From Mobula hypostoma (taxonomy: Eukaryota): a stretch of DNA of 64,000 bases. The stretch is taken from positions 144,710,001 to 144,774,000 of the forward strand of contig NC_086097.1 of assembly GCF_963921235.1 (NCBI RefSeq), given 5' to 3'. How positions within the stretch are numbered: the stretch's first letter is position 1; each line of letters begins with the position of its first letter. The notes under the pieces are model-generated. The model had not been told where the DNA came from, searched no databases, and saw only the letters and a program-made list of their open reading frames with translations. The translations under genes and the position numbers were made by a program. Positions 7,019 to 55,525 of this stretch are shown in pieces.

Positions 7019-7295
7019 GGATTGTGTGTTCTAAATTTTACTTCGGTACTGAGGTTTGCCTGCGTAACTCTGTCTCTCCGTGTCAAGATAAGTATTGTCT
7101 GCCGCCTGCTTTTCCTCCTGTTTGCCATCAAACTCCAGCAACGCTCCGTGTCAAGATAAGTATGGCCTGCCGCCTGCCTTTCCATTCACCCTCCTGTTTG
7201 CAGTTCAGCTCCAGCCACGCTCCCGTGCTCATCTGCATCCTAAATCTATCTTCGTGCCAGTGTCCTGTCTTTGGGTTCACCTGTTCTATGCAACA
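7019..7295 (+). repeat. 5' LTR (5'-truncated, with an internal tandem duplication)
   Basis: Aligns by eye to 11882-12090 and ends ctatgcaaca. Confidence 0.9.
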
Positions 7296-7311
7296 GAGCC
7301 ATCTGGCCACC

Positions 7312-8350
7312 ATGGACCCAGCAGACACAAACTCCATCCAACAAGCCCTCGCCAGCCAGGGTTCCCTACTGGGACAGCACGACCAACTCCTCCAGGAGGT
7401 CATGGGGAACTTCCGTTCCCTGTCTGCTCACGTCACGCAGATCGGTGACCAGGTGGACCATGTCTCTGCTCATGTCCCTCAATACACTCCTGGAACCCAG
7501 TCTAGCCAGCCCAGACAGCCAGTAGCGGTAACCCCCCTAGCTTCACCAACATCCTCGCCCAGAGAGCCTTCACGTACCAAAGCCAGAGCACTACACGGGA
7601 GATTTGGGGAAGTGTTGGGGTTTCCTCCTTCGGTGCTCCCTGGTGTTTGAACAGCAGTCGTTGACTTACTCCACAGATAAATCTATAATTGCTTATGTCA
7701 TGGGGTTGCTATGGAGGAGCACATTAGCGTGGGCCACAGTGGTTTGGGACAACCAACCAGATATCTGCTACTCTTTTGCTAGTTTCATCACAAAGATGAG
7801 AAAAATCTTTGATCACCCCGTCCATGGTAAAGACGCCGCCAAGCATCTACTCATTCTCCGCCAGGGCTCCTGCAGTGTTGCTGAATATTCAGTGGAGTTC
7901 CAGACATTGGCAACCGACTCAGGGTGGAACGATGAGTCACTCCAGGAGGTTTTTCGGAATGGACTCAGTGACCTGGTGAAGGACGAGTTGGCGGTGAGAC
8001 ACAACTCTGACAGCTGGATTCCCTGATCTCCCTGGCCACCAGGATGGACAATCACCTCCGAGAGCGCCATAGAGAGAGAACTGGTCGTCCAGCATCTTTG
8101 GCCACTTCTCGGCTCTTTTTACCGCCTCCCAGCAGAACAAGCCTCTCTCCTCCTCCTGCACTCTGAGTAGCTCCCAGCCCCGCCGTTTCCACCAGCCCAG
8201 GAGAGGAACCCATGCAGTTGGGACGGGTCCGCCTTTCTCCCACTGAACGACTCCGGAGAATGAAAGCGGGCGTGTGTCTATATTGCGGTCAGTCCAGCCA
8301 CGTCCTTACCATCTGCCCCCTTCGGCCAAAAAGGGAGGGTTCACCAGTAG
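7312..8350 (+). pseudogene. gag: gag (frameshifted), with a CCHC zinc knuckle
   Basis: MDPADTNSIQQAL..., GFLLRCSLVFEQQ...LRQGSCSVAEYSVEFQTLATDSGWND, EEPMQLG...[15 protein letters not shown], split over several frames. Confidence 0.9.
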
Positions 8351-11300
8351 CAGGGGGGACCAGGGTGAGCCAGACAACCTTCCCTTTCATCCCCCGACCC
8401 CGGATGCAGCTTCAAGCCACTCTGTGTCACAGCCAACGGTCCTTGCCTCTGCTATTGCCAGTGGACTCCGGCGCAGAGGGAAGCTTCATGGATGAAAACT
8501 TAGCCTTCCAAGCTGGTATTCTTTGTGAACATATGTGTACCCCCCTGGACAACCAGGCGCTAGACAGTAGACTCCTGGCCCGAGTCACGCTCTGCACGGA
8601 ACCCCTGCTTCTCCTTCTCTCCAGAAACCACTGGGAACAGGTACGATTTAATCTAATTTCCTCTCCTCAAGCCCCTTTAGTTCTCCGCCACCCTTGGCTA
8701 AGCCGTAATAACCCCCACATCAACTGGCCCCCCGGGAAGATAGTCAGCTGGAGCTCGTTCTGCCATTCCTCTCACCTGCAATCAGCTCTTCCCCCAGTAG
8801 CGGTCGCTGCGACCTCATCTGCCTCTGAGCCCCCTGACTTGTTCACGGTTCCTGTAGAATATCACAATCTTGGAGAGGTGTTTATTAAGCAACAGGCCCT
8901 TTCTCTGCCTCCACATTGCCCTTATGATTGCGCAATTGACCTTCTCCCCAGAGCCTCATTACCCACCAGTCGGCTGTATAACCTGTCCCGCCCGGAAAGA
9001 GAAGCTATAGAGATGTACGTAAATGACTCCTTCTCGGCTGGCATCATTCGACCCTCATCTTCCGCTGTAGGCGCTGGTTTCTTCTTCGTGGGGAAGAAAG
9101 ACGACTTGCTACGCCCATGTATCGACTACCGTGGCCTGAACAACATTACCATAAAGAATAAGTATGCCCTGCCCCTGATCAACCCAGCATTCGAGCCCCT
9201 TCACGGAGCCACAGTTTTCTCTATATTGGACTTGCAGAACGTCTATCACCTGGTCAGGATATGGGAGGGAGAGAATGGAAGACAGCCTTTAACACCCCCC
9301 TTGGTCATTTTGAATACCTGATGATGCCTTTCGGCCTGACCAACGCTCCCGCGGTGTTCCAGGCTCTGGTCAACGACGTTCTTAGGGACTTCATTAACCG
9401 ATCTGTTTTCATTTATCTGGACAATATCCTAATCTCCTCCCGTAATCTCCAGGAGCACACCTATCATGTCCGCCAGGTCTATCAGAGGTTTTTGGAGAAC
9501 AAGCTATTTGTTAAGGCCGAGAAGTGCAAATTCCATGCCCGTTCCATCACTTTCCGGGGGTACATCATTGAGAGCGGGCAGGTGAGGGCGGATCCCGAAA
9601 AGACCCAGGTGGTGGCAGAGTGGCCCAAACCCACGATGCTTAAACAACTCCAGCGATTTCTGGGATCCATCAATTTCTATCATCGCTTCATCAGGGACTA
9701 CAGCCGGGTGGCAGCACCCCTTACTCAACTCACCTCTCCTGTGACCCCCTTCCACTGGACTCCAGAAGCGGACTCAGCCTTCTCAGAGCTGAAGAGGCGT
9801 TCCACCTCCGCTCCCATCCTGGTCCAACCTGACCCCTCTCGCCAGTTCATAGTGGAAGTCAACACCTCCGACTCTGGGATGGGAGTGGTCCTCTCTCAAC
9901 GCTCTGTCCCAGACCAAAAGCTCCATCCTTGCTACTTCTTCTCTCATTGTCTATCCCCCGCTGAACGGAACTAAGACATAGGGAACCGGGAGTTGCTGGC
10001 CATCAAACTTGCCTTGGAGGAGTGGAGGCACTGGCTGGAGGAAGCAGAACACCCATTCATTGTTTGGACAGACCATAAGAACCTGGCATACATCCAGACA
10101 GCTAAACGCCTTAACTCCCGTCAAGCCCGTTGGGCACTGTTTTTTGGCCGCTTCAATTTCACCCTCATCTACCGTCCTGGTTCCAAAAACGTGAAGCCTG
10201 ATGGTCTCTCTCGTCATAATGTCTCTGAGGAGGACCCTTCCAATCCTGCTACCATCCTTTCACCATCCTGTGTTGTGGCTGCCCTCACCTGGGAGATCAA
10301 GTCTGTAGTTAAAGAGGCCCAACGGACTCAACCTGACCCAGGCGATGGCCCTCCCCAATCGTCTCTTCGTGCCTGATGCTGTCCTTTCTCAGGTTCTCCA
10401 GCGAGGGCACACTTCCCTACCTGCCATCCTGGGAATCGGTCGAACCCTGTCCCTTTTGAAATGATATTTCTGGTGGCCCACCATGGACTCTAACACTCGT
10501 TCCTTTGTCTCCACCTGTTCTGTTTGTGCCCACGGAAAAGCCTCCCATTGACCACCTGCTGGGCTGCTTCATCCCCTACCTGTCCCTGGCCGCCCTTGGT
10601 CCCACATTGTTCTGGATTTCGTTACTGGACTACCCCCTTCACATGGTAACACTGCTGTGCTCACCATGGTGGACCGTTTTACCAAAGCCTTGCACTTCAT
10701 AGCCCTTCCCAAACTCCCTACTGCCCGTGAGACTGCCGACCTCTTTGTCCGACATGTCTTCCGCCTTCATGGAATTCCCTCTGACATTGTTTCCGACCGG
10801 GGCCCCCAATTCATTTCTCAAGTCTGGAAATCCTTCTGTCAAGCCCTTGGGGCTTCAGTAAGTCTGTCTTCCAGTTTCCATCCACAGACTAACAGTCAGA
10901 CGGAGTGAGCAAGTCAGGATTTGGAAGCAGCACTGCTCTGCATTTCCGCCAGTAACCCGTCATCCTGGAGCACACATCTCATTTGGATTGAGTACGCACA
11001 CAACTCCCTGGTCAGCACTGTCACCGGTATGTCCCCTTTCGAATGTTCCCTAGGCTATCAGCCCCCTCTGTTTCCTGCCCACGAAGACAACATCGCTGTG
11101 CCTTCAGTTCAGGCCCATCTCCGCCGGTGCCGCAGGTCTGGAAGGATGCACGCTCGGCCCTGCTCCTCCCCACTGACCGCAAAAGGCATATTGCTGATCA
11201 CCACCAGATTCCAGCACCCAGCTATCAGCCTGGTCAGAGGGTTTGGCTCTGTTCGAAAGACATCCCCCTCAAAACTGAATCCAAGAAACTCACCCCTCAT

Positions 11301-11640
11301 TACATCGGACCATTCGAAATCGAGAGCATCATCAACCCCTCCGCGGTCAAACTCAAGCTACCCAGATCCATGCGCATTCATCCCACGTTCCACCTCTCCC
11401 AACTGAAACCTCTGTCTGTCAGCCCTTTGTGCCCTCCTGCCTAACCTCCTCCATCAGCCCGGGTCATCGACAAGCACCCAGCTTACACCATCTGGTGAAT
11501 ACGGGATGTGCGCTACTGAGACAGGGGCTTCCAGTACCTCGTCGATTGGGAGGGATATGGTCCTGAGGAGTGCACCTGGATCCCTGCTCCTTCATCTTAG
11601 ACCCCTCTCTCATCCGAGACTTCCATCGCGACAATCCAGG
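8351..11640 (+). pseudogene. pol: pol (protease, RT, RNase H, integrase, chromodomain), with frameshifts and stops
   Basis: [37 protein letters not shown] (for YLDD); [35 protein letters not shown] motif; chromodomain [17 protein letters not shown] at about 11530-11580. Confidence 0.92.
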
Positions 11641-11693
11641 CAAGCCTGGTGGTTCACCTGGAGACTCCCATTAAGGGTGGGGTGGCGCGGTAC

Positions 11694-12090
11694 TGTCACG
11701 GTCCCGACTGTTAATTCCTGATATGTTCTCCTAATTCCCTTTTCCCGTGTTCTCCGGTGCTCCTTGATTGCAACGCCTGATTCTCATCTAAACCAGCAGC
11801 ATAAAAACCCCATCTTTGCATCCACTCGTTGTCAGATCGTTGTTTTCAGCCAGTCTGGTAATTCACGTTCCCGACCTCTTAGGATTGTGTATTCTAAGTT
11901 TTACTTCAGTACTGAGGTTTGCCTGTGTAACTCTGTCTCTCCGTGTCAAGGTAAGTATTGCCTGCCGCCTACCTTTCCGTTCACCCTCCTGTTTGCCGTT
12001 CAGCTGCAGCCACACTCTCGCCCTTGTCTGCATCCTAACTCTATCTCCATGCCAGTGTCCTGCATTTGGGTTCACCCATTCTATGCAACA
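11694..12090 (+). repeat. 3' LTR (397 bp)
   Basis: Starts tgtcacg after the purine tract, ends gcaaca, and has a TATA-like cataaaa at 11800-11806. Confidence 0.9.
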
Positions 12091-12794
12091 ATTTCAGGTC
12101 ATATATATGCAGAAATAGTGAAAATTCTATCGGGTTCACAAACTTTCTAGTACCACTGTATGCAGATGGAGTTACTTTACTGTACTTTTATGGGAATAGG
12201 GGAATAATAAGGAAAAATGCTATGGTCAATCTCTTTCCCCCAGACATCTTACTATTCACACAACTCAACAATAATGCATAGTACATCAACTCAATGAAGA
12301 ACAGTGGATATGATCTGGATGTGACTAATGTACAAATGACATGAATTTCGTTAGCATGTCAAATTTGATGGGTTTTCCACAGTCCCTCACAACTAATGGA
12401 ATCAATGGCTTTTGTAAGTTTGATAAATGCCATCTGTCATGGCTAGTGCAACTCCCTACTACAACACACAAACTTTATCAACCTTACTAAAGCGTTTTGC
12501 ATCTTAGCTTGGGAGGGACTAGGAACCACCTCCCAGAATTTAACTACTCTCACAAACTAGTATCAGAATCACAATCACAATCACAATTAGATTTAGTATC
12601 ACTGGCATATGTAGTGAAATTTGTTGTTCTGTGGTGGCAGCACAGTGCAATACAGAAATATTGCTGTAAGTTACAACAAAAACACATAAAAATAGATGAA
12701 CAACAGGAATTCTGCAGATGCTGGAAATTCAAGCAACACACATCAAAGTTGCTGGTGAACGCAGCAGGCCAGGCAGCATCTGGAGGAAGAGGTG

Positions 12795-12832
12795 CAGTCG
12801 ACGTTTCAGGCCAAGACCCTTCGTCAGGACTG
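12795..12832 (-). ncRNA. Minimal type I hammerhead ribozyme motif (Penelope-associated), core apparently intact
   Basis: Minus strand CAGUC-CUGACGA-A-GGGU CUUG GCCU-GAAAC-GUC/GACUG: stem I CAGUC:GACUG, full CUGANGA/GAAA core and palindromic ACGU stem III. Confidence 0.75.
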
Positions 12833-13556
12833 ACACAACAACAGACAGATTTCACTTACATCAGTTTGATCACTGAGCTTGTCTACCAGGAAGTCTGGAA
12901 TTCAATATAGTTTTTGTTCCAGGGTGCAGTTTGGGAACTGCGATTCACTTCCTAAACTAGAAGCAGACAATGCTTGCTGAGTATTTGGAAAATTAGTATG
13001 TGCAATTCTAAAAGGATTACAATGGTTAGACCACATACAAGTAACTTTTAAGTAAACAAAACTTCCACAGACAATGTTTAATTGTCCCAAACAATGTCGT
13101 AGAGTACCAATAGCAGCAAACCTTTGCTTAATAAATATTTTCCAATTTAAGCTGGAACAAAGAAAAATCCTGAACTTCATTTCCTTCATAGCAAGGTTGA
13201 GGGTTTCTTACTCCCCTCCACCTATAATCCTCAATGAGCCAGCTAATTAATTTTCCAATATGGTCATTAGTTTGTTGATTTGACTCTTTTGGGCAAAATG
13301 TGTACTGCAAAAACAAAATATCCAAACTATCATGTAAACAGACATTTGTGTTTCAATCATGGAAATGGAATATGTCAAAACTCCTCAGACGAGAAAACAA
13401 ATTTTACAAAGAAAGATCCACCAAGTGTGAGTGCTAAGTAAGCTTTTAGACTGGGCAAGACAGTTGAAAAGGAGAGGGAAACACACTAGAATAAATGAGA
13501 ACAGAAAAAGTAGGGATAAAAACGAGGAAAAGGTATCTACAACAACCTAGTTAACT

Positions 13557-13594
13557 TTGTCCCGACGAAGGGTCTCGGCCTGAAACGTCGACTG
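13557..13594 (+). ncRNA. Hammerhead motif copy with a mutated core (CCGACGA)
   Basis: gtc-ccgacga-agggtctcggcct-gaaac-gtc-gactg. It has a U4-to-C change and a shortened stem I. Confidence 0.55.
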
Positions 13595-13741
13595 CACCTC
13601 TTCCTAGAGATGCTGCCTGGCCTGCTGCGTTCACCAGCAACTTTTATGTGTGTTGTAAAAATAGATGAAGAGTGCAAGAAGGGTACAGAATAGCAAAGTT
13701 CATGCACTATTCAGAAATCAGAAGGCAGAGGGGAAGAAGCA

Positions 13742-14355
13742 AGAAATTTCTCCTTCTCTCTACTCCAAATGGATATCCCTCGGTTCTGAGGATGACTCGC
13801 CCACTATAGGAAACATTTTCTCTATATCCATTCTATCTAGGCCTTTCAATATTTGATAGATTTCAATGAGGTCCCCTCTCTTTCTTCTAAACTCCGGTGA
13901 GTACAGGAGGCCCAAAGCCATCAAACCCTCCTCACGCATTAACCCTTTTATTTCTGGAAAAATTCTTCTGAACCTCCTCTGGACCCTTTCCAAAGCCAGC
14001 ACATCTTTTCCTTAGATAAGGGACCCCAAACCGCTTACAATACTCCAAGTGCAGTCTGCCCAATGCCTTAAAAAGCTGCTGCATTGTATCCTTGCTCTTT
14101 TCTTCTTCTTCTTTCAAAATGAATGCCAACATTGCAATAGCCTTCCTCAACCTGCAAGTTAACCTTTAGCGAATCCTGCACAAAGACTCTAATGGGTGAA
14201 TTTTCTCCTCATTTAGAAATTAGTCCACACCTTTATTCCTTCTACCAAAGTGCATGACCATATACTTCCCTACATTCTATTTGCCGCGTCTTTACCCATT
14301 CTTCCAATTTGTGTGAGTCCTTCTGCCAACTCCCTCTGTTCTCAGCACTGCCTGC
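13742..14355 (-). mobile_element. CR1 LINE fragment
   Basis: ORFs 13760-14002 and 13932-14150(-): LALERVQRRF, RGDLIEIYQILKGLDRMD, RLHLEYC. Confidence 0.9.
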
Positions 14356-20835: not shown

Positions 20836-20948
20836 TCAGAATCAGAATCAGAATCAGGTTTATTATCACCGGCATGTGTCATGAAGTCGGTAAACATAGC
20901 AGCAGCAGTTCAGTGCTATACATAATATGGAAGAAGAAGGAAAAAATT

Positions 20949-20979
<31 letters not shown>

Positions 20980-22150
20980 TGCAGTATATGTATAATGAAT
21001 AGATAAAAAATCAAGCAAAAACAGAAATTACATATATTAAAAAAGTGAGGTAGTGTTCAAAGGTTCAATGTTCATTTAGGAATCGGATGGCAGAGGTGAA
21101 GAAGCTGTTCCTGAATCACAGAGTTTGTGCCTTTAGGCTTCTGTACCTCCTACCTGATGGTAACAGTGAGAAAAGGGCATGCCCTGGGTGCTGGGGGTCC
21201 TTAATAATGGGTGCTGTTTTTCTGAGACACCGCTCCCTGAAGATGTCCTGGGTACTTTGAGGGCTCGTATCCAAGACGGAGCTGACTAACTTTATAACCT
21301 TCTGCAGCTTCTTTCAGTCCTGTGCAGTAGCCCCTACCCCCCACCATACCAGACAGTGATGTAGCCTATCAGAATGCTCTCCACAGTACATCTATAGAAG
21401 TCTTTGAGTGTTTTTGTTGACTTACCAAATCCCTTCAACTCCTAATGAAGTATAGATGCTGTCTTGCCTTCTTTATAGCTGCATCGATATTTTGGGCCTA
21501 GGTTAAGTCCTCAGAGATCTTGACACCCAGGAACTTGAAACTGCTCACTCTCTCCCCTCTGATCCCTCTGTGAGGATTGGTACGTGTTCCTTCCTCTAAC
21601 CTTCTTAAAGTCCACAGTCTTTACTGACGTTGAGTGCAAGGTTGTTGCTGCGACACCACTCCACTAGTTAGCGTATCTTGATTCTGTAGGCCCTGTCACC
21701 TCCATCGGAGATTCTACCAACAATGGTTGTATCATCAGCAAATTTATAGATGGAATTTGAGCTATGCCTAGCCACACAGTCATGGGTATAGAGAGAGTAG
21801 AGAAGTGGGCTAAACACACACCCAAGGTGCACCAGTGTTGATTGTCAGTGAGGAGGAAATATTATCACCAATCCACACAGATTGCGGTCTTCCGGTTAGG
21901 AAGTCAAGGATCCAATTGCAGAGGGAGGTACAGAAGCCCAGGTTCTGTAACTTCTCAATCAGGATTGTGGGAATTATGGTGTTAAATGCAGAGCTATAGT
22001 TGATGAACAGCATCCTGACATAGGTGTTTGTATTGTCCGGGTGTTCTAAAGCCATGTGAAGAGCCATTGAGATCGCATCTGCCATTGACCTATTGTGGCG
22101 ATAGGCAAATTGCAGTGGGTCCAGGTCATTGCTGAGGCAGGAGTTCAAGT
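20836..22150 (-). mobile_element. Rex1/Babar-type LINE, 5'-truncated
   Basis: ORF 21810-22148(-) [17 protein letters not shown]...[16 protein letters not shown]...[13 protein letters not shown]. (TCAGAA)n tail at 20836-20857 and (TCAA)n at about 20948-20978. Confidence 0.92.
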
Positions 22151-25100
22151 CTAGTCTAGATCATTTTGATCATCACCTCCTTCTCATATCCAAACATAAT
22201 GATACCAGTGTACATAGTGACTGGTGAAAGCAGAACCAGCAGTCAGAAAGCCCTGATGGACACTCCTACTGCAGTCCCTTTTCATTGTTGTGGATAGGCA
22301 TGACATTGAGGGAGTGAGGTGCAAAGAATTTGAGCATTGGTTACATGGATAGCTTAATGTGAATTCTGGTATTTTTTAAAATCCTGATAAGCCTAAGGAG
22401 ATGAAATCAACGTTCTTTTAGTGGTGATCCTCTGTTACGTGCAACATGTACTGCAACATGAAATTGGGAAAACTACCAAAATGTGTTACTATATGCTTTT
22501 TGGGAACATAATACAAATGGTGGATATAGAAGGAATGATTCCTCTCTTGGGAGAATCCGGAATTAGGGGTTACTGTTGGAAAATAAAGTACCATTTACTA
22601 AAGATAAAGATATGCAACTTTCCTTTGTTTCTCAGTGATTCTCAAAGGCTGTGGAAGCAGATTTGGAGAAGTTCATGATAAGCAAGACGGTGCAATGCTA
22701 CCATGGCTACAAGAGCAAGCAGAGTTGAGATTGCTGTCAGATCAGCCATGATTATATTAAGTGAGACTTGAGGACTGAGGGATCTGCAACTTTAACAATA
22801 GGATATGGCACATCTCCGTCTGGAACCCGTCGGAGAATAAAGTCTCATCGGGAATTGATATTCTGTGAAGTTTACATTGAACGAATGTTTCCAGAAAGTA
22901 GTTTTTAAATCCCATCTTGTCAGCGCAGGCCAATGGAGCTCGTCATAAATTTTGCTTGCTTATTTTTGGCTCTGCACTGGATGTAGTTGAGGTATTCATG
23001 AGCAAGGACTGTTTCATTATTCTAAAGAACAAGCAATGGAGCTTAATGAAAGAATCAGGGTATGGTCTCACATAGAATATTGTTATTGATTGTAATTTAT
23101 TTTGATGATTTGGAGCTAGAAATCAACATCAGCATCAAACGCTAGAGATGAAACCAAGCTGTCAGTCATAGGCTGAGGCTGGAGTTGGTTGTGTAAAGTA
23201 AGGTACAGCTGATACTGAGGAAGAAAGTGGCGCAATTCAAAATTTCAATTGAATTCATGCTCCCAATTTAGTTAAGAACACAGACAAATCTTATGTTACA
23301 TACTTTAGCAAGAAAAGTTGAATCAGTATCTCTATGTCAAAATAAAAACTGAATGGATTGGAAAAGCAATAATAAGCTTTAGGGCTACAGGCTGGTAAAT
23401 CACTGAAAGCAAAAATCCAAGTTAAAAAAATACAATTACATTGCAAACAAAACACTGAGATTTACTTTTAAGATATTCAGAAATACTGTAATAAAATTAT
23501 TTCAAATTAAACCACTGATAGTTCTTTTCTCCATACTCTGAGAAGGACAGAGAAACCCTAATGAAAGAGCAGTAAAAATTATGAAGAACTGTGAGATTAA
23601 CATGCTTGGAGATTAAAGATTGAGATTTTTTTAGATTGAGGAGAAGGTTTCACCAGAGCTTAGTGTGAAGTAGCAACTGAATGTGTACTCCCCTTCTGCA
23701 AAATGGTTTAATGGAAGTTGTCATTTTCCTGAAGCTTTGTATGTGCATTAATTATGATCAACTTTCTACCCCAGTGCTGAAAAATCCAAAATCCAAAAGG
23801 TGATTGAACATAAGGCAGCTATCAGTAAATCAAATGGGGCATAAGAAGAAGTTGATTTACTCAATGAATGGTTAGAATGTGGAGCTTGTTACCACAGGAA
23901 ATGCTTTCAAATAGGAAACCAGACAAGTAGCTGAGAGAAGCAGGAATAGAAAACTAAAATTCTGCAGTGAGGTAGACAAAATAAAAAATAATGTATGGGG
24001 TATAAGTGCCAGCATGGGATTGTTGGAGCAAATGGCCTTTTTCTGTACACAAAAATATATCTATTCCTACATAAGATGAATATTTAGAAGAGTGTGTGCT
24101 TGAGAGGTATTGGATTTTAGGATGAATGCAGGTATTTTGTCTTATCTCTCTGCTGACTAGTATTGTAGAGTAGTATGGACCTGACTTTAGTTGTGTGGTT
24201 CAGAGCAACGTGTATGGACAACAGCACTTTTTTTTACAGTCCAAATCCTTATTAAGTATTTTTGGCATTTACTACCAAGTGAACAAGAGATTTGTTTTTT
24301 AACTGGGATCAAGTTATCCTCAACTTGTTTATTCATTTCTGAACTTGTTTGTCTGTCTTTTACATATCCCTGTGATTGCATATGAAAATACATCATTATG
24401 CACCTCATGAACACTACAATCAGGCCCGAATTATGTCAGAAGTTTCAAGATAATGATCTCAATCTCCAGAGGTTTTGTAATGTTACACAAGCTTTGTGCT
24501 TGGCTACTTGCCACCTCTGGAATTCATTATTTTTTGTTTCAGCCTGCACTGCGGGCAACCTGGCAGCACAGCACACCACACTGGTATTATAACAGTGAAA
24601 TCGGAGAGCCTGGGACTTATCGCCTCCCGCATTCTCTGCTCCAATTCTCCAGTGGACCACCTGAGAAGACAGTATGCGGAGGATGGGCCTTGCAAGGGAG
24701 GAAGCAGTGAACACTAGAGGGCAGGCATTTCTCTGCTGAAGAAAGCTCAACTCGTATCAACCATGCAGAGAAAGTTGGCCAGATACAATGACTTGGAAAA
24801 TCACCTTTGCGTGAAAAAGTGCACTAAAATAGTTCTGCGCAGGGGACTTGCAATGGCTTGTTGTTTGCCATTAGTACATGATTTCTGCCCATGCACCTCA
24901 GGCAAGGACTTGATACTTAAGGCGATGCCAATTGTAATGTTTTCCCCATTGCCATACATTAACTGTAAGTGATTTCAGAAGTTCCACACACCAGATGAAA
25001 ATAATCTGCACTATTTCACATTGCAGTGCTCCTGTGCTACTGAAAGGGGAGTTGAGAACCAAACCCAGCCAGTGTTGGAAGTCATTATTCAGCGTGGGGA

Positions 25101-30300: not shown

Positions 30301-31121
30301 CAACACCCACCACATTCTATTGTGCACAAGATACTTCGAGAAAAGGCAGGGTGGGGTGTGGCATTGCAAAATTAGTAGTTTTGTTGATGGTGAAGAAAGT
30401 AAAGGATAGAAAAGGAAGTGGATATGGAGTTTGCAATGCACAAGATTGGAAAAATCTGCAGAGGATTGTAGAATCAACTAGCTCCATTATGGATGCTAGT
30501 CTCCTCACCATGAAGAATATCTTCAAAAGCTGACGCTGCTAGAAGGCCACGTCTATCATTCAGCATGCTTGCTATCCAGAACATGCCCTCTTCTCATTAC
30601 TACCACTGGGGAGAAAGTACAGGAGCATGAGGACATACACACAATGTTTTAGAAACAGCCTCTGCCCCTCTGCCACGTAGGAAGGATGTGATCGCCCAGA
30701 GAGCATGCAGGGATTACCAGGATGTTACACAGATGGATTAGTTTAATTATGAGGAGAGACTTGATAGACTGGGTTTGTTTTCCTTGAAGCGGAGGAAACT
30801 GAGGGAAAAGCTAACAGGGGGTATTCAAAGTTATGAGCCAGCTCCAGCCTGGTCTGCTTCTTTTCAGAGATTTGAAACATCTTTAGCACCAGAAGAAGTG
30901 CCAAAGAATTGCATGTTAACGAATGTTTTTCCATTGTGGAGAATGAGATGAGGGAGATCTTGAATGAAATGTTTTCATCTGTATTTACACAATGTCTATT
31001 GAAGTGAAGCAGGAGAGCAGTGAAGTCATGAAATGGATACAGATGACAGAAAAGGAGCTGTTTGTTGCCTTGAGGCAAATTAGGGTGGATAAATTGAAAG
31101 GCCAGACAAGATATTCCCTCA

Positions 31122-31220
31122 ACACACTTAAAAAATGCTGGTGAATGCAGCAGGCCAGGCAGCATCTATAGGAAGAGGTACAGTCGACTTTTGGCATCTG
31201 CAGATTTCCTTGTGTTTGCG
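31122..31220. mobile_element. Tiny Penelope-derived insertion with inverted halves
   Basis: 14-bp TSD aagatattccctca at 31108-31121 and 31221-31234. Minus-strand arm about 31122-31193 and plus-strand tail about 31194-31220. Confidence 0.8.
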
Positions 31221-31472
31221 AAGATATTCCCTCAGACCTGTGGGGGACTGTGCAGAAATTGCAAAGGGCCTACCAGAGATATTTAAAACATCTTCAGCAA
31301 CAAATGAAGTGCCGGAGGATTGGAAGATAACTAATGTTTTCTGTTGTTCAGGAAAGGCTCAAAGAGTAAGTCAAGGAATTACAGGCCAATGAGCCTGACA
31401 TCAGTAGAAGGTAACTTACTGGAAGGTATTATAAGAGACCAGGTACAGTATGTCAGTATTTGCTTAGACAGC

Positions 31473-38000: not shown

Positions 38001-38657
38001 AAGTGGGTCCTTAACTTTCTGACCAACAGATCCCAATCAGTAAAGATAGGCAGCAAGACCTTCACTGCGATTATTCCCAGCACGGGTGCTGCACAATGGT
38101 GTGTCCTCTGCTCCCTACTCTACTCCTTGTACATTCATCACTGTGTGATCTGATTCTGCTCCAAATCCACCTACAAATTTGCAGGTGATATCCCTAATGG
38201 TCCATATCTCAAATAATGATGAGTCAGAGTCTAGCAAGGAGATGGAGAGCTTAGTAACATGGTGTCATGACGATAAGCTTTCCCTGAAAGTCAGCAAAAG
38301 AAAAGAGCTGGTCATTGTCTTCAGGAAGGAGGTGATGCACATACATCAGCCATGCTCAGGCTGAGAGGGTTGACAGCTTTATGTTCCTAGGAATGAACAT
38401 CGTCAGTGACCTGCTATGGTGCAAACATTTAGACATAATGGCCAAAAAAGCACTCAAATTCCATTACTTCCTTGGAAGCAAAAGAAGTTTATCATGTTCC
38501 CATCAATGTTGACTAATTTTTATTGATGCACCATAGAAAGTATCCAAATTGAATGCATAACAGCTTGGTATGGCAAATGCTCTGCATGTCTTCATGAGAA
38601 ACTGCAAAGAGCTGTGGACAGAGGTCAACACATCATGGAAACCAGACTCCCTCTGTC

Positions 38658-40342
38658 AAGCAACATGCACAAAATGCTGCATGAACTCAGCAGGCCTAAA
38701 CAGCATCCACGGAAAAAAGTACAGTTGATAATTTGGGTCAAAACCCTTCAATGGGACTGGAGAAAGAAAGCAGAGGAGTTGACTTGAAAGATGAGGGGAG
38801 AAACGCCAGACAATAGGTGAAATTTGGAGGGGAGGGATGAAGCAAAGAGCTAGAAAATTGATTGCTGAAAGAGACAGAAGGCCATGGAAGAAAGAAGAAA
38901 GGGGGTTGGGAGGAGCACCCGGGGGAGGTGATGAGCAGACAAGGAGTTATCATGAGAGAGGAACACGGGGATGGGAAATGGTGAAGGGGGAGGGGTGGTG
39001 GTGGCATTACTGGAAGTTTGAGAAATCGATGTTCGTTCCATCAGGTTGGAGGTTACCCAAATGGAATATAAGGTGTGGTTCCTCCAACCTAAGTGTGGCC
39101 TTATCCCAACAGTGGAGGCGGCCTTGGATGGACATATCAGAATGCAAATGGGAAGTGGAATTAAAATGGGAGGCCACTGAGAGATCCCACTTGTTCTGAC
39201 GGACAGAGCTCCGATGCTCGGTGAAGTGGTCTCCCAAACTAGACTGGGTCTCACCGATTTACAAGAGTCCATAGTGGGAGCACCCCAACAGACTCACAGG
39301 TGAAATGTTGCCTCACCTGAAAGGACTGTTTGGGGCCCTGAATGGTAGTGAGGGAGGAGGTAGAGGGGCAGGTGAAGAACTTGATCCGCTTGCAAGGATA
39401 AGTGCCACGAGGGAGATCAGTGGGGAGGGACGGATGGACAAGGGAGTTGCATAGGGAGCGATCCCTGCAGAAAGCAGAAAGTGAGGGAGAGGGAAAGATG
39501 TGTTTGGTGGTGGGATCCAGTTGGAGCTGGTGGAATTTTCAGAGAATTATTTGCTATTCGCAGAGGCTGGTGGGGTGCTAGTTGAGGACAAGAGGAACCC
39601 TATCCCTGTAGTGTGGCAGGAGATGGGGTAAGAGCGGACGTGTGTGAAATGGAGGAGATGCAGTTGAGGCCAGCTTTGATGGTGGAGGAAGGGAAGCCCT
39701 TTTCTTTGAAAAAGGATGACATCATCTTCACTGTTGAATGAAAAGCCTCATCCTGAGAGCAGATGCAGCAGAGACCGAGGAATTGAGAGAATGGGATGGC
39801 GTTTTTACAAGTAGCAGTGTTGGACGAAGTATAGTCCAGGTAACTGTGAAAGTCCATTGATTTATAACAAACATTGGTGGATAAGCTGTCTCCGGAGATA
39901 GAGAGAGCAAGATCGAGAAAGGGAAGGGAAATGTCGGAAATGGACCAGGTGAATTTATGGGCTGGGTGGAAGTTGGAGGCAAAATGGATGAAATGGATGA
40001 GTTCAGCACAGGTGCAGGAAGCAGCACCAGTAGAGTCGTCAATGTAGCCTCCCTCTGGTGTTCCTCCCTCCCCTTTCTGTCTCTTTCACCAATCAACTTC
40101 CTAGCACTTTGCTTCATCCCTCCCCCTCCAAGTTTCACCAATTGCCTGGTGTCTCTCTCTCTCTCCTCTCTCCCCACCTTTCAAATCTGCTCCTCAGCCT
40201 TTTTTCTCTAGCCCTGCCAAAGGATTTCAGCCTGAAACATTGATTGTACTTTTTTCCATCGATGCTGCCTGGCCTGCTGAGTTCCTCCAGCATTTTGTGT
40301 GTGTCGCTCGGACTTCCAGCACCTGCAGATTTTCTCTTGTTT
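38658..40342 (-). mobile_element. Penelope-like element (RT C-terminus plus GIY-YIG endonuclease) with an inverted terminal arm at about 40050-40342
   Basis: YIDD at about 40036-40047(-), NFTWSISDISLPFLDL, FHSYLDYTSS, KNAIPFSQF, IGET...GDHFTEH, QPDGTNIDFSNF. TSD ctccctctgtc (38647-38657) / ctccctttgtc (40343-40353). Confidence 0.92.
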
Positions 40343-40355
40343 CTCCCTTTGTCTA

Positions 40356-49947: not shown

Positions 49948-50240
49948 ATCAGAATCAGAATCAGGTTTAATATCATTGGCATAAGTTGCGAAATACAATG
50001 CAATACATAATAATAGAGAAAAATGTGAATCACAGTAAGTACTTATGTGTGTGTATATATAAATAATAGTTATATTTGATACTGTATGTAGTGCAAAAAT
50101 AGAATTAAAAAAGTAATGAAGTAGTGTTCATGGGTTCAATATTCATTCAGAAATCTAATAGCAGAGGGGAAGAAGCAGTTTCTGAATCATTGAATGTGTG
50201 CCTTCAGGCTTCTGTACCTCCTCCCTGATGGTAACGATGT
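49948..50240 (-). mobile_element. Rex1/Babar-type 3' end
   Basis: atcagaatcagaatcaggtttaatatc tail and body similar to 20836-21170. Confidence 0.8.
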
Positions 50241-55395: not shown

Positions 55396-55525
55396 GTCCT
55401 GAAAAAGGGTCTCAGCTCAACTGTTTACTCTTTTCTATAGATGATGCTTGACCCACTGAGTTTCTCCTGCATTCTGTGTGTGCTGCTTTGTATTTCCAGC
55501 ATCTTTAGATTTTCTTGTGCTTGTT
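55396..55525 (+). repeat. Short Penelope-derived terminal repeat (degenerate hammerhead region); older relics at about 55710-55830, 56445-56540, 56770-56895 and 58960-59025
   Basis: gtcctgaaaaagggtctcagc...gatgatgcttgacc...tatttccagcatct...gattttcttgtg. Confidence 0.65.

Follow-up and report, generated by a model that had tools for sequence, protein, structure and literature searches.

Host DNA at the internal join of a head-to-head Penelope-like insertion in the ray Mobula hypostoma: a probable capture event

In a 64-kb stretch of the Mobula hypostoma genome (64,000 nucleotides, referred to below as the window), an insertion unit was confirmed that consists of two head-to-head Penelope (Poseidon-type) ends, a one-sided 33-nt tail and an exact 14-bp target site duplication (TSD), with 722 bp of non-coding host DNA between the two ends. 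This cargo is a copy of a locus elsewhere in the genome that lacks Penelope ends (hereafter arms), and we consider it probable (about 0.7) that one Penelope integration captured the host sequence at its internal join. On the best reading, the integration left a dead duplicate of non-coding DNA as a one-off outcome. The layout of the unit and of the retroelement that it interrupts is as follows (RT, reverse transcriptase).

12560..12686, minus strand: interrupted non-LTR retroelement tail, left part, with high contig depth
12687..12700, plus strand: left TSD, 14 bp, 12 of 14 positions A/T, exact repeat, word TAAAAATAGATGAA
12701..12831, minus strand: left Penelope end, extending from the hammerhead 5' edge to the 3' tail, with CAACA at the start of the new strand
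12701..12733, minus strand: one-sided 33-nt tail of the left arm (second RT start site); the right arm has no tail
12796..12831, minus strand: minimal hammerhead of the left arm, with intact core and 4 of 4 helix-I pairs in a descriptor scan
12832..12833, no strand: left junction bases (n=2), untemplated or mutated arm bases
12834..13555, no strand: non-coding host cargo, 722 bp, copy of an armless locus elsewhere; left end CACAACAACAG
13556..13558, no strand: right junction bases (n=3), untemplated, or arm bases with one change
13559..13655, plus strand: right Penelope end, tail-less, hammerhead core changed at 13563
13656..13669, plus strand: right TSD, exact copy of the left word TAAAAATAGATGAA
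13670..13741, minus strand: interrupted non-LTR retroelement tail, right part, with matches to in-window copies

The perfect 14-bp TSD that the original prediction had placed on both sides of the unit is exact at 12687-12700 and 13656-13669, and its word TAAAAATAGATGAA occurs only twice in the 64 kb window, both times at the unit edges. A match of this kind is expected by chance at ~1.7e-8 per placement, or ~2e-4 if 100x100 offsets are allowed. The plus-strand Penelope end at 13559-13655 was likewise recovered as predicted, its 97 nt being 95% complementary to 12734-12830 of the left arm (5 differences in 97). For the minus-strand end, placed at 12701-12832, identity and strand held and the inner limit was corrected to 12831. 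Both arms are 71-88% identical to other Penelope ends within the window, the left one 76-88%, and such ends are dense there (9 ends aligned). At the left junction, donor contigs begin at 12834, and the continuation of the Penelope family past 12831 starts AAC. Between the arm consensus and the donor boundaries, as defined from contigs, the left side allows an overlap of no more than 1 nt and the right side none (0 nt). For comparison with DNA repair we used the category of templated sequence insertion at a repaired break.

According to the same prediction, the tail of an interrupted retroelement, which we take to be Rex, continues across the insertion site. Both flanks match 20836-21164 and 49948-50235 in the same order with 75-88% identity, and the family of the interrupted element has an RT. 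After subtraction of the insert, the anchors are spaced 113 nt apart as compared to 179 and 165 nt in the two in-window copies, and the ~60 nt nearest the TSD align poorly with both. Because of this poorly aligned stretch, continuity of the tail as read from these alignments is likely and falls short of base-by-base proof. A non-LTR element on the minus strand occupies 20836-22160; it contains RT fragments (Pfam RVT_1), and its tail is the same as that of the interrupted element.

The parent of the arms can be approached through a longer in-window Penelope copy, whose 3' end is 71-76% like the arms and whose peptide is 63-74% identical to 10 ray proteins, which by itself makes a ray-like cartilaginous fish the most likely host. 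Three of these proteins were scanned and two gave a GIY-YIG match (E 5e-4 and 8e-4, below the Pfam curated cut-off), located downstream of the RT end; three Penelope peptides from the window gave 0 matches in Pfam. The features of EN+ Penelope-like elements are present in the insertion: an AT-rich TSD (14/14 identical), an inverted 5'-truncated copy and a tail of the 30-40 bp type. Judged from sequence, the insertion is of the EN+ Penelope-like type, with a predicted parent ORF made up of an RT followed by a C-terminal GIY-YIG; the Poseidon-clade label is given by likeness and not from a tree. Two of the database proteins, P0002 and P0008, bear host-gene names (chitinase domain-containing protein 1; divergent protein kinase domain 1C isoforms) and are 63-74% identical to the Penelope RT peptide; they may be mis-annotated or exonised isoforms.

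By its motif, a minimal hammerhead is carried by both arms in the terminal repeat, the right one with a core change (T>C at 13563), and cleavage is predicted only. The descriptor definition was that given in the available text of PMC4209133. Rfam returned 0 gathering-level matches in the window and, for 12600-13800, four chance-level matches only (E 1.1-3.6); plain folding of the two hammerhead regions gave no significance (z -1.1 and 0.07). A second hammerhead-core-like word at 13782-13821 (plus strand) has only 2 of 4 helix-I pairs and is probably due to chance.

As the original prediction had noticed, the arms both come to an end at the hammerhead 5' edge; the position was seen in both and is not peculiar to this unit, being common in cargo-less joins. 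Hammerhead cleavage was rejected as the cause of the stop because the arms retain the whole motif and end ~30 nt upstream of the predicted cut. The stop position fits YYANWYY, the initiator consensus, as do 1.2% of window positions, and this fit suggests run-off at the 5' end of the RNA. It also coincides with a pyrimidine tract followed by AG, resembling a splice acceptor. In long copies, at 38758-38790 and 40185-40210, a pyrimidine tract and AG lie directly at the hammerhead 5' edge, possibly as a conserved splice acceptor or transcription start. The stop could alternatively be due to splicing, given this tract and AG and the intron end of the Drosophila virilis Penelope, which maps to the 5' end of helix I in the accessible text of PMC4209133. 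Fold-back extension on helix I was also considered and dropped, as it would account for only one of the two left junction bases. A solo copy near 55396 that begins at the same hammerhead edge was ambiguous and was left out of the count.

The middle of the unit had been described as ~725 bp (12833-13558) without recognisable similarity. Its extent was corrected to 12834-13555 (722 bp), and its unrecognisable character stood: there is no long ORF, no second copy in the window and no Rfam match, and comparison with the in-window Penelope copies gave no match. The cargo has a GC content of 35.5%, no TSD of its own and no poly(A), the longest run of A or T being 5, and no mark of splicing, polyadenylation or editing was seen in contigs, the only material available for this purpose. 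Its left end consists of 10 nt of pure A/C holding CAACA, the word that starts both arms; ends of this kind occur at 0.3% and 0.9% of window positions, and the coincidence was noticed post hoc. The cargo differs from organism C (see below) at 42/698 sites and the flank at 8/133, both 6.0%, and because of this equality we regard the cargo as ordinary, vertically inherited host DNA. The 'foreign' sequence of the original prediction is thus host sequence from another locus, 6.0% from C like the flank. With no ORF and a divergence like that of the flank, the cargo looks neutral.

Evidence of the donor comes from contigs of public sequencing runs. Of the 24 runs listed, 20 contain the cargo in whole or in part; they represent seven coded organisms, and contigs were compared for four of these runs: X1 (possible source sample, organism A), X5 (a second A sample), X9 (organism B) and X10 (organism C). 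Six of the 20 cargo-holding runs are guessed to be RNA, none is on record as such, and of these six only X5 is among the four runs compared. In all four runs, cargo-matching contigs exit the window sequence at 12834 and/or 13553-13555 into sequence that is not arm, the left boundary being 12834 in each of the four; the contigs run on at both sides in three runs and at the left side only in X1. A 1639-nt contig of C (X10 record 10) covers 12834-13553 with 505 and 436 nt unlike the window on its sides. In the second A sample (X5 records 17 and 18) the run-ons measure 273 and 150 nt and both boundaries are crossed unspliced, in B (X9 records 27 and 32) they extend over 4435 nt on the left and 742 nt on the right, and X1 record 6 runs on for 831 nt on the left and ends at 13555. 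These armless run-on contigs establish that an armless donor locus exists elsewhere in the genome. The original prediction had named a donor locus without arms as the observation that would speak for capture, and this is what all four runs contain.

Comparison of the cargo versions gives an indication of age. X5 differs from the window at 17/719 cargo sites; of the two versions present in X9, one has 2 differences in 133 nt and the other 5. As to the 29 cargo differences listed (42 difference rows in all lie beyond the listing), five group the window and a B version against X5 and X10, one groups X5 and B against the window and X10, and seven separate the window from at least one contig in each of X5, X9 and X10. 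The alleles shared in these ways suggest a donor and copy pair created by duplication after the split of C and before that of A and B; the two versions in X9 could instead be alleles of one locus. Over its 722 nt the cargo is matched by X1 record 6 at 100% identity, and still this contig runs on into flank without arms. We read this contig as a collapsed mosaic of donor and copy, as X9 record 32, which joins window alleles at 13503 and 13523 to donor flank, appears to be; it also fits a single native locus in the X1 sample, or a very recent copy. A second cargo version in X1 is indicated at only one listed site (13415), in AT-rich sequence. A half-depth donor flank hinted at by a rough depth split of X1 record 6 was dropped when X9 record 32 disagreed. 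In X5 the left flank 12200-12534 has no cover while the cargo is covered.

Head-to-head units of the same build without cargo are present in the window and support capture at the join. Two of them served as internal controls.

31108..31234, no strand: cargo-less head-to-head unit (internal control), 99 bp, exact 14-bp TSD, one tail-less and one tailed arm
38647..40355, no strand: older cargo-less head-to-head unit (second control), 1.7 kb, TSD 11/13 identical

The minus arm of the older unit is a remnant with broken RT-end and GIY-YIG frames, and its join lies near 40050. In the unit at 31108-31234, at most a few bases separate the end of the minus arm from the predicted hammerhead cut. Joints in the contigs agree with these controls: among the 15 joint rows listed (809 more exist, most sides being shorter than 31 nt), 11 connect 12829-12835 straight to 13559-13572, in at least 66 contigs in X1 and at least 48 in X9. 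Cargo-less head-to-head joins at the hammerhead edge are, on this evidence, common; the pile-up at 12831 comes in part from clipping of longer arms to this reference. The empty-site joint (12700 to 13670) is absent among the 15 rows listed.

The events leading to the unit probably ran as follows. The endonuclease of the element would have cut both strands of the AT-rich site 14 nt apart, the TSD being seen and the enzymatic step modelled on PMC11167929. Reverse transcription of Penelope RNA would then have been primed by each 3' end, in one case from the tail start and in the other from 33 nt inward, giving head-to-head arms; this offset is seen in the sequence. Both cDNAs would have ended at the hammerhead 5' edge, a position that is observed, most simply by run-off at the 5' end of the RNA. 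Finally, the usual direct joining would have been replaced by 722 nt from the armless host locus bridging the two ends; the donor is seen and its use at this moment is what we infer. According to the accessible text of PMC11167929, synthesis by the Penelope protein proceeds on both strands from a pair of neighbouring internal sites, and an RNA truncated at its 5' end yields a shorter product; the PAc protein of Anolis cuts and extends both strands, the spacing of its two internal start sites corresponding to the tail.

Capture between two priming events, one of the routes first proposed for this locus, is therefore supported by the armless donor and is the best reading. Within it, two sources of the bridging sequence are almost evenly placed. 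The left-hand RT may have jumped to an unspliced host RNA, landing on a UGUUG-like site similar to those at which it normally starts, or the cargo may have been supplied by a DNA-templated repair patch. The CAACA start word at the left end of the cargo, seen post hoc, tilts us slightly to the RNA template jump. A more general proposition is that, in rays, reverse transcription by Penelope regularly ends on both target strands by run-off at a fixed 5' end of the RNA, located at the hammerhead edge, and that the enzyme can start anew on any host RNA containing a UGUUG-like site; we hold this to be tentative and rather doubtful. If it were true, head-to-head insertions would quite generally and at high frequency trap unspliced host RNA, with no need for element sequence at the donor. 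Vertebrates would then have a duplication route different from L1 transduction, and both the tandem of Penelope terminal repeats (pLTRs) and intron-retaining capture would be explained.

The main rival is a history in two steps, in which a cargo-less head-to-head unit, a near-perfect 100-bp palindrome, was inserted first and a later break at its centre was patched with host DNA. It owes this place to the fact that the arms can be read as ending at exact mirror positions: if the junction bases are counted as arm, the ends fall at 12833 and 13556 and the palindrome is tight. The frequency of cargo-less joins and the lack of poly(A) in the cargo would also suit a late patch. However, measured against the common stop point, no bases are missing from the central end of either arm, the cargo begins with Penelope's own start word, and the divergence between cargo and donor (2.4%) is not clearly younger than that between the arms (5 differences in 97). 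We consider this history unlikely.

Less likely still is transduction by RNA processing, in which a Penelope end at or near the donor would have given rise to a read-through or spliced RNA, the host piece being joined to the acceptor at the hammerhead edge, copied and provided with an inverted second arm. The pyrimidine tract and AG at the hammerhead edge of longer copies, the D. virilis intron that ends at the 5' end of helix I (PMC4209133) and the formation of such spliced chimeras by L1, as described in the available text of 10.1101/2025.02.02.635956, would be in keeping with it. Against this, the donor contigs are armless past both ends in X5, X9 and X10, they leave the 2-3 junction bases and the left AG uncovered, and those of X5 are unspliced across both boundaries.

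An assembly chimera, the middle having been wrongly joined in from its native locus, would account for X1 record 6, identical to the cargo and running into armless flank, and for the fact that none of the contigs listed for the four runs bridges an arm and the cargo; X9 record 26, which crosses the left TSD, includes only 23 nt of arm where the bridging rule is 31 nt. The armless donor, however, offers nothing to mediate such a misjoin, the TSD and the tail stagger are exact, and B has two versions, one of which carries window alleles, with X9 record 32 also mosaic. This explanation appears very improbable.

The idea that two separate insertions flank native DNA, whether or not a local inversion took part, is largely refuted. 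Penelope ends are dense in this region and the two arms differ at 5/97 sites, as separate insertions might; yet the unit has a single outer TSD pair and no inner TSDs, the host tail probably continues across the site, and the donor flanks (436-4435 nt) contain no listed piece on 12200-14200 on either strand, which also argues against a local inversion. The least probable and likewise largely refuted alternative is the other route of the original prediction, a non-autonomous ribozyme-flanked family mobilised by Penelope: Penelope-derived non-autonomous retrozymes do exist (10.64898/2026.07.22.740005, available text), but the contig depth of the cargo (5-22, depth not being copy number) is close to that of the single-copy flank (6.7-9) as against ~10^6 for the arms and so argues against a family, the window holds no second copy (best other match 22 nt, E 0.011), and the hammerheads lie on opposite strands and not in tandem, the right one being mutated.

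Capture at the join can be compared with published systems, in each case as far as the accessible parts of the papers describe them. Arkhipova et al. 2013 (PMC3846280) report for the rotifer Adineta vaga that Penelope repeats within TSDs enclose an intron-containing gene and several non-coding pieces. In Table S1 of that paper, two Penelope2 ends (76 and 40 nt, -/+ orientation) are entered on scaffold_334 with ~800 bp between them; the accessible part of the table does not state the content of the gap. The present unit resembles these captures in that unrelated sequence lies between pLTR pieces inside one TSD, and differs in its vertebrate host and in a donor that is armless at both boundaries in relatives. 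For the A. vaga NRPS case the arms are direct pLTRs and an empty site was proven, whereas the arms here are inverted. PMC3846280 concludes that flanking pLTRs mobilise what lies between them; here the armless donor leads us to favour capture at the join.

An adjacent inverted truncated copy and a one-sided tail of 30-40 bp are typical of EN+ Penelope-like elements (PMC8557442). The head-to-head arms, 33-nt one-sided tail, AT-rich target and minimal hammerhead of our unit are shared with these elements and with Anolis PAc (PMC11167929). In the usual inverted form, however, the copy is immediately adjacent, whereas here 722 bp of host DNA occupies the join. Opposite-strand hammerhead pairs 100-700 bp apart are described in a flatworm (PMC4209133). 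The unit also resembles the twin-priming, template-switch and two-RNA chimeras of L1 (PMC11702581; 10.1101/2025.02.02.635956), in which RT extends both ends of the break, a discrete TSD of 12-18 bp is kept and a template switch can supply the middle piece. It departs from them by its GIY-YIG and telomerase-like RT, by primed ends without poly(A), and by having both ends derived from the element and starting at fixed internal sites. Like non-LTR retrozymes (10.64898/2026.07.22.740005), it is short, hammerhead-bearing, Penelope-derived and non-coding; unlike these multi-copy and often tandem elements, it has opposed hammerheads and a near-unique body.

The unit behaves as a Penelope capture event and, on most of the features tested, is one. 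The capture route is already published for rotifers in the text available from PMC3846280; what the present unit adds is a vertebrate case with a donor lacking element ends. No vertebrate report of this structure was found in open-licence PMC and bioRxiv, a scope outside which most subscription papers fall. The accessible text of PMC11167929 and PMC8557442 leaves unsettled in what way Penelope elements complete their integration and acquire host sequence, and the value of the present case is mechanistic: since the donor is armless, a sequence can be moved without having been flanked by terminal repeats beforehand. Two predictions follow from the fixed stop point and the CAACA-like start of the cargo; both lend themselves to genome-wide counting and to trial in the PAc in vitro assay.

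Minor observations concern the neighbourhood of the unit. A bacterial promoter scan of the window gave chance-level results, the model not being applicable to this host. A decayed LTR retrotransposon occupies ~7019-12090, with terminal repeats near 7019-7295 and 11882-12090 that are 83-88% alike and a weak RT match at 8167-9321. Finally, an imperfect inverted repeat lies at 12381-12520, its arms (12381-12427 and 12474-12520) being 78% identical over 49 nt.
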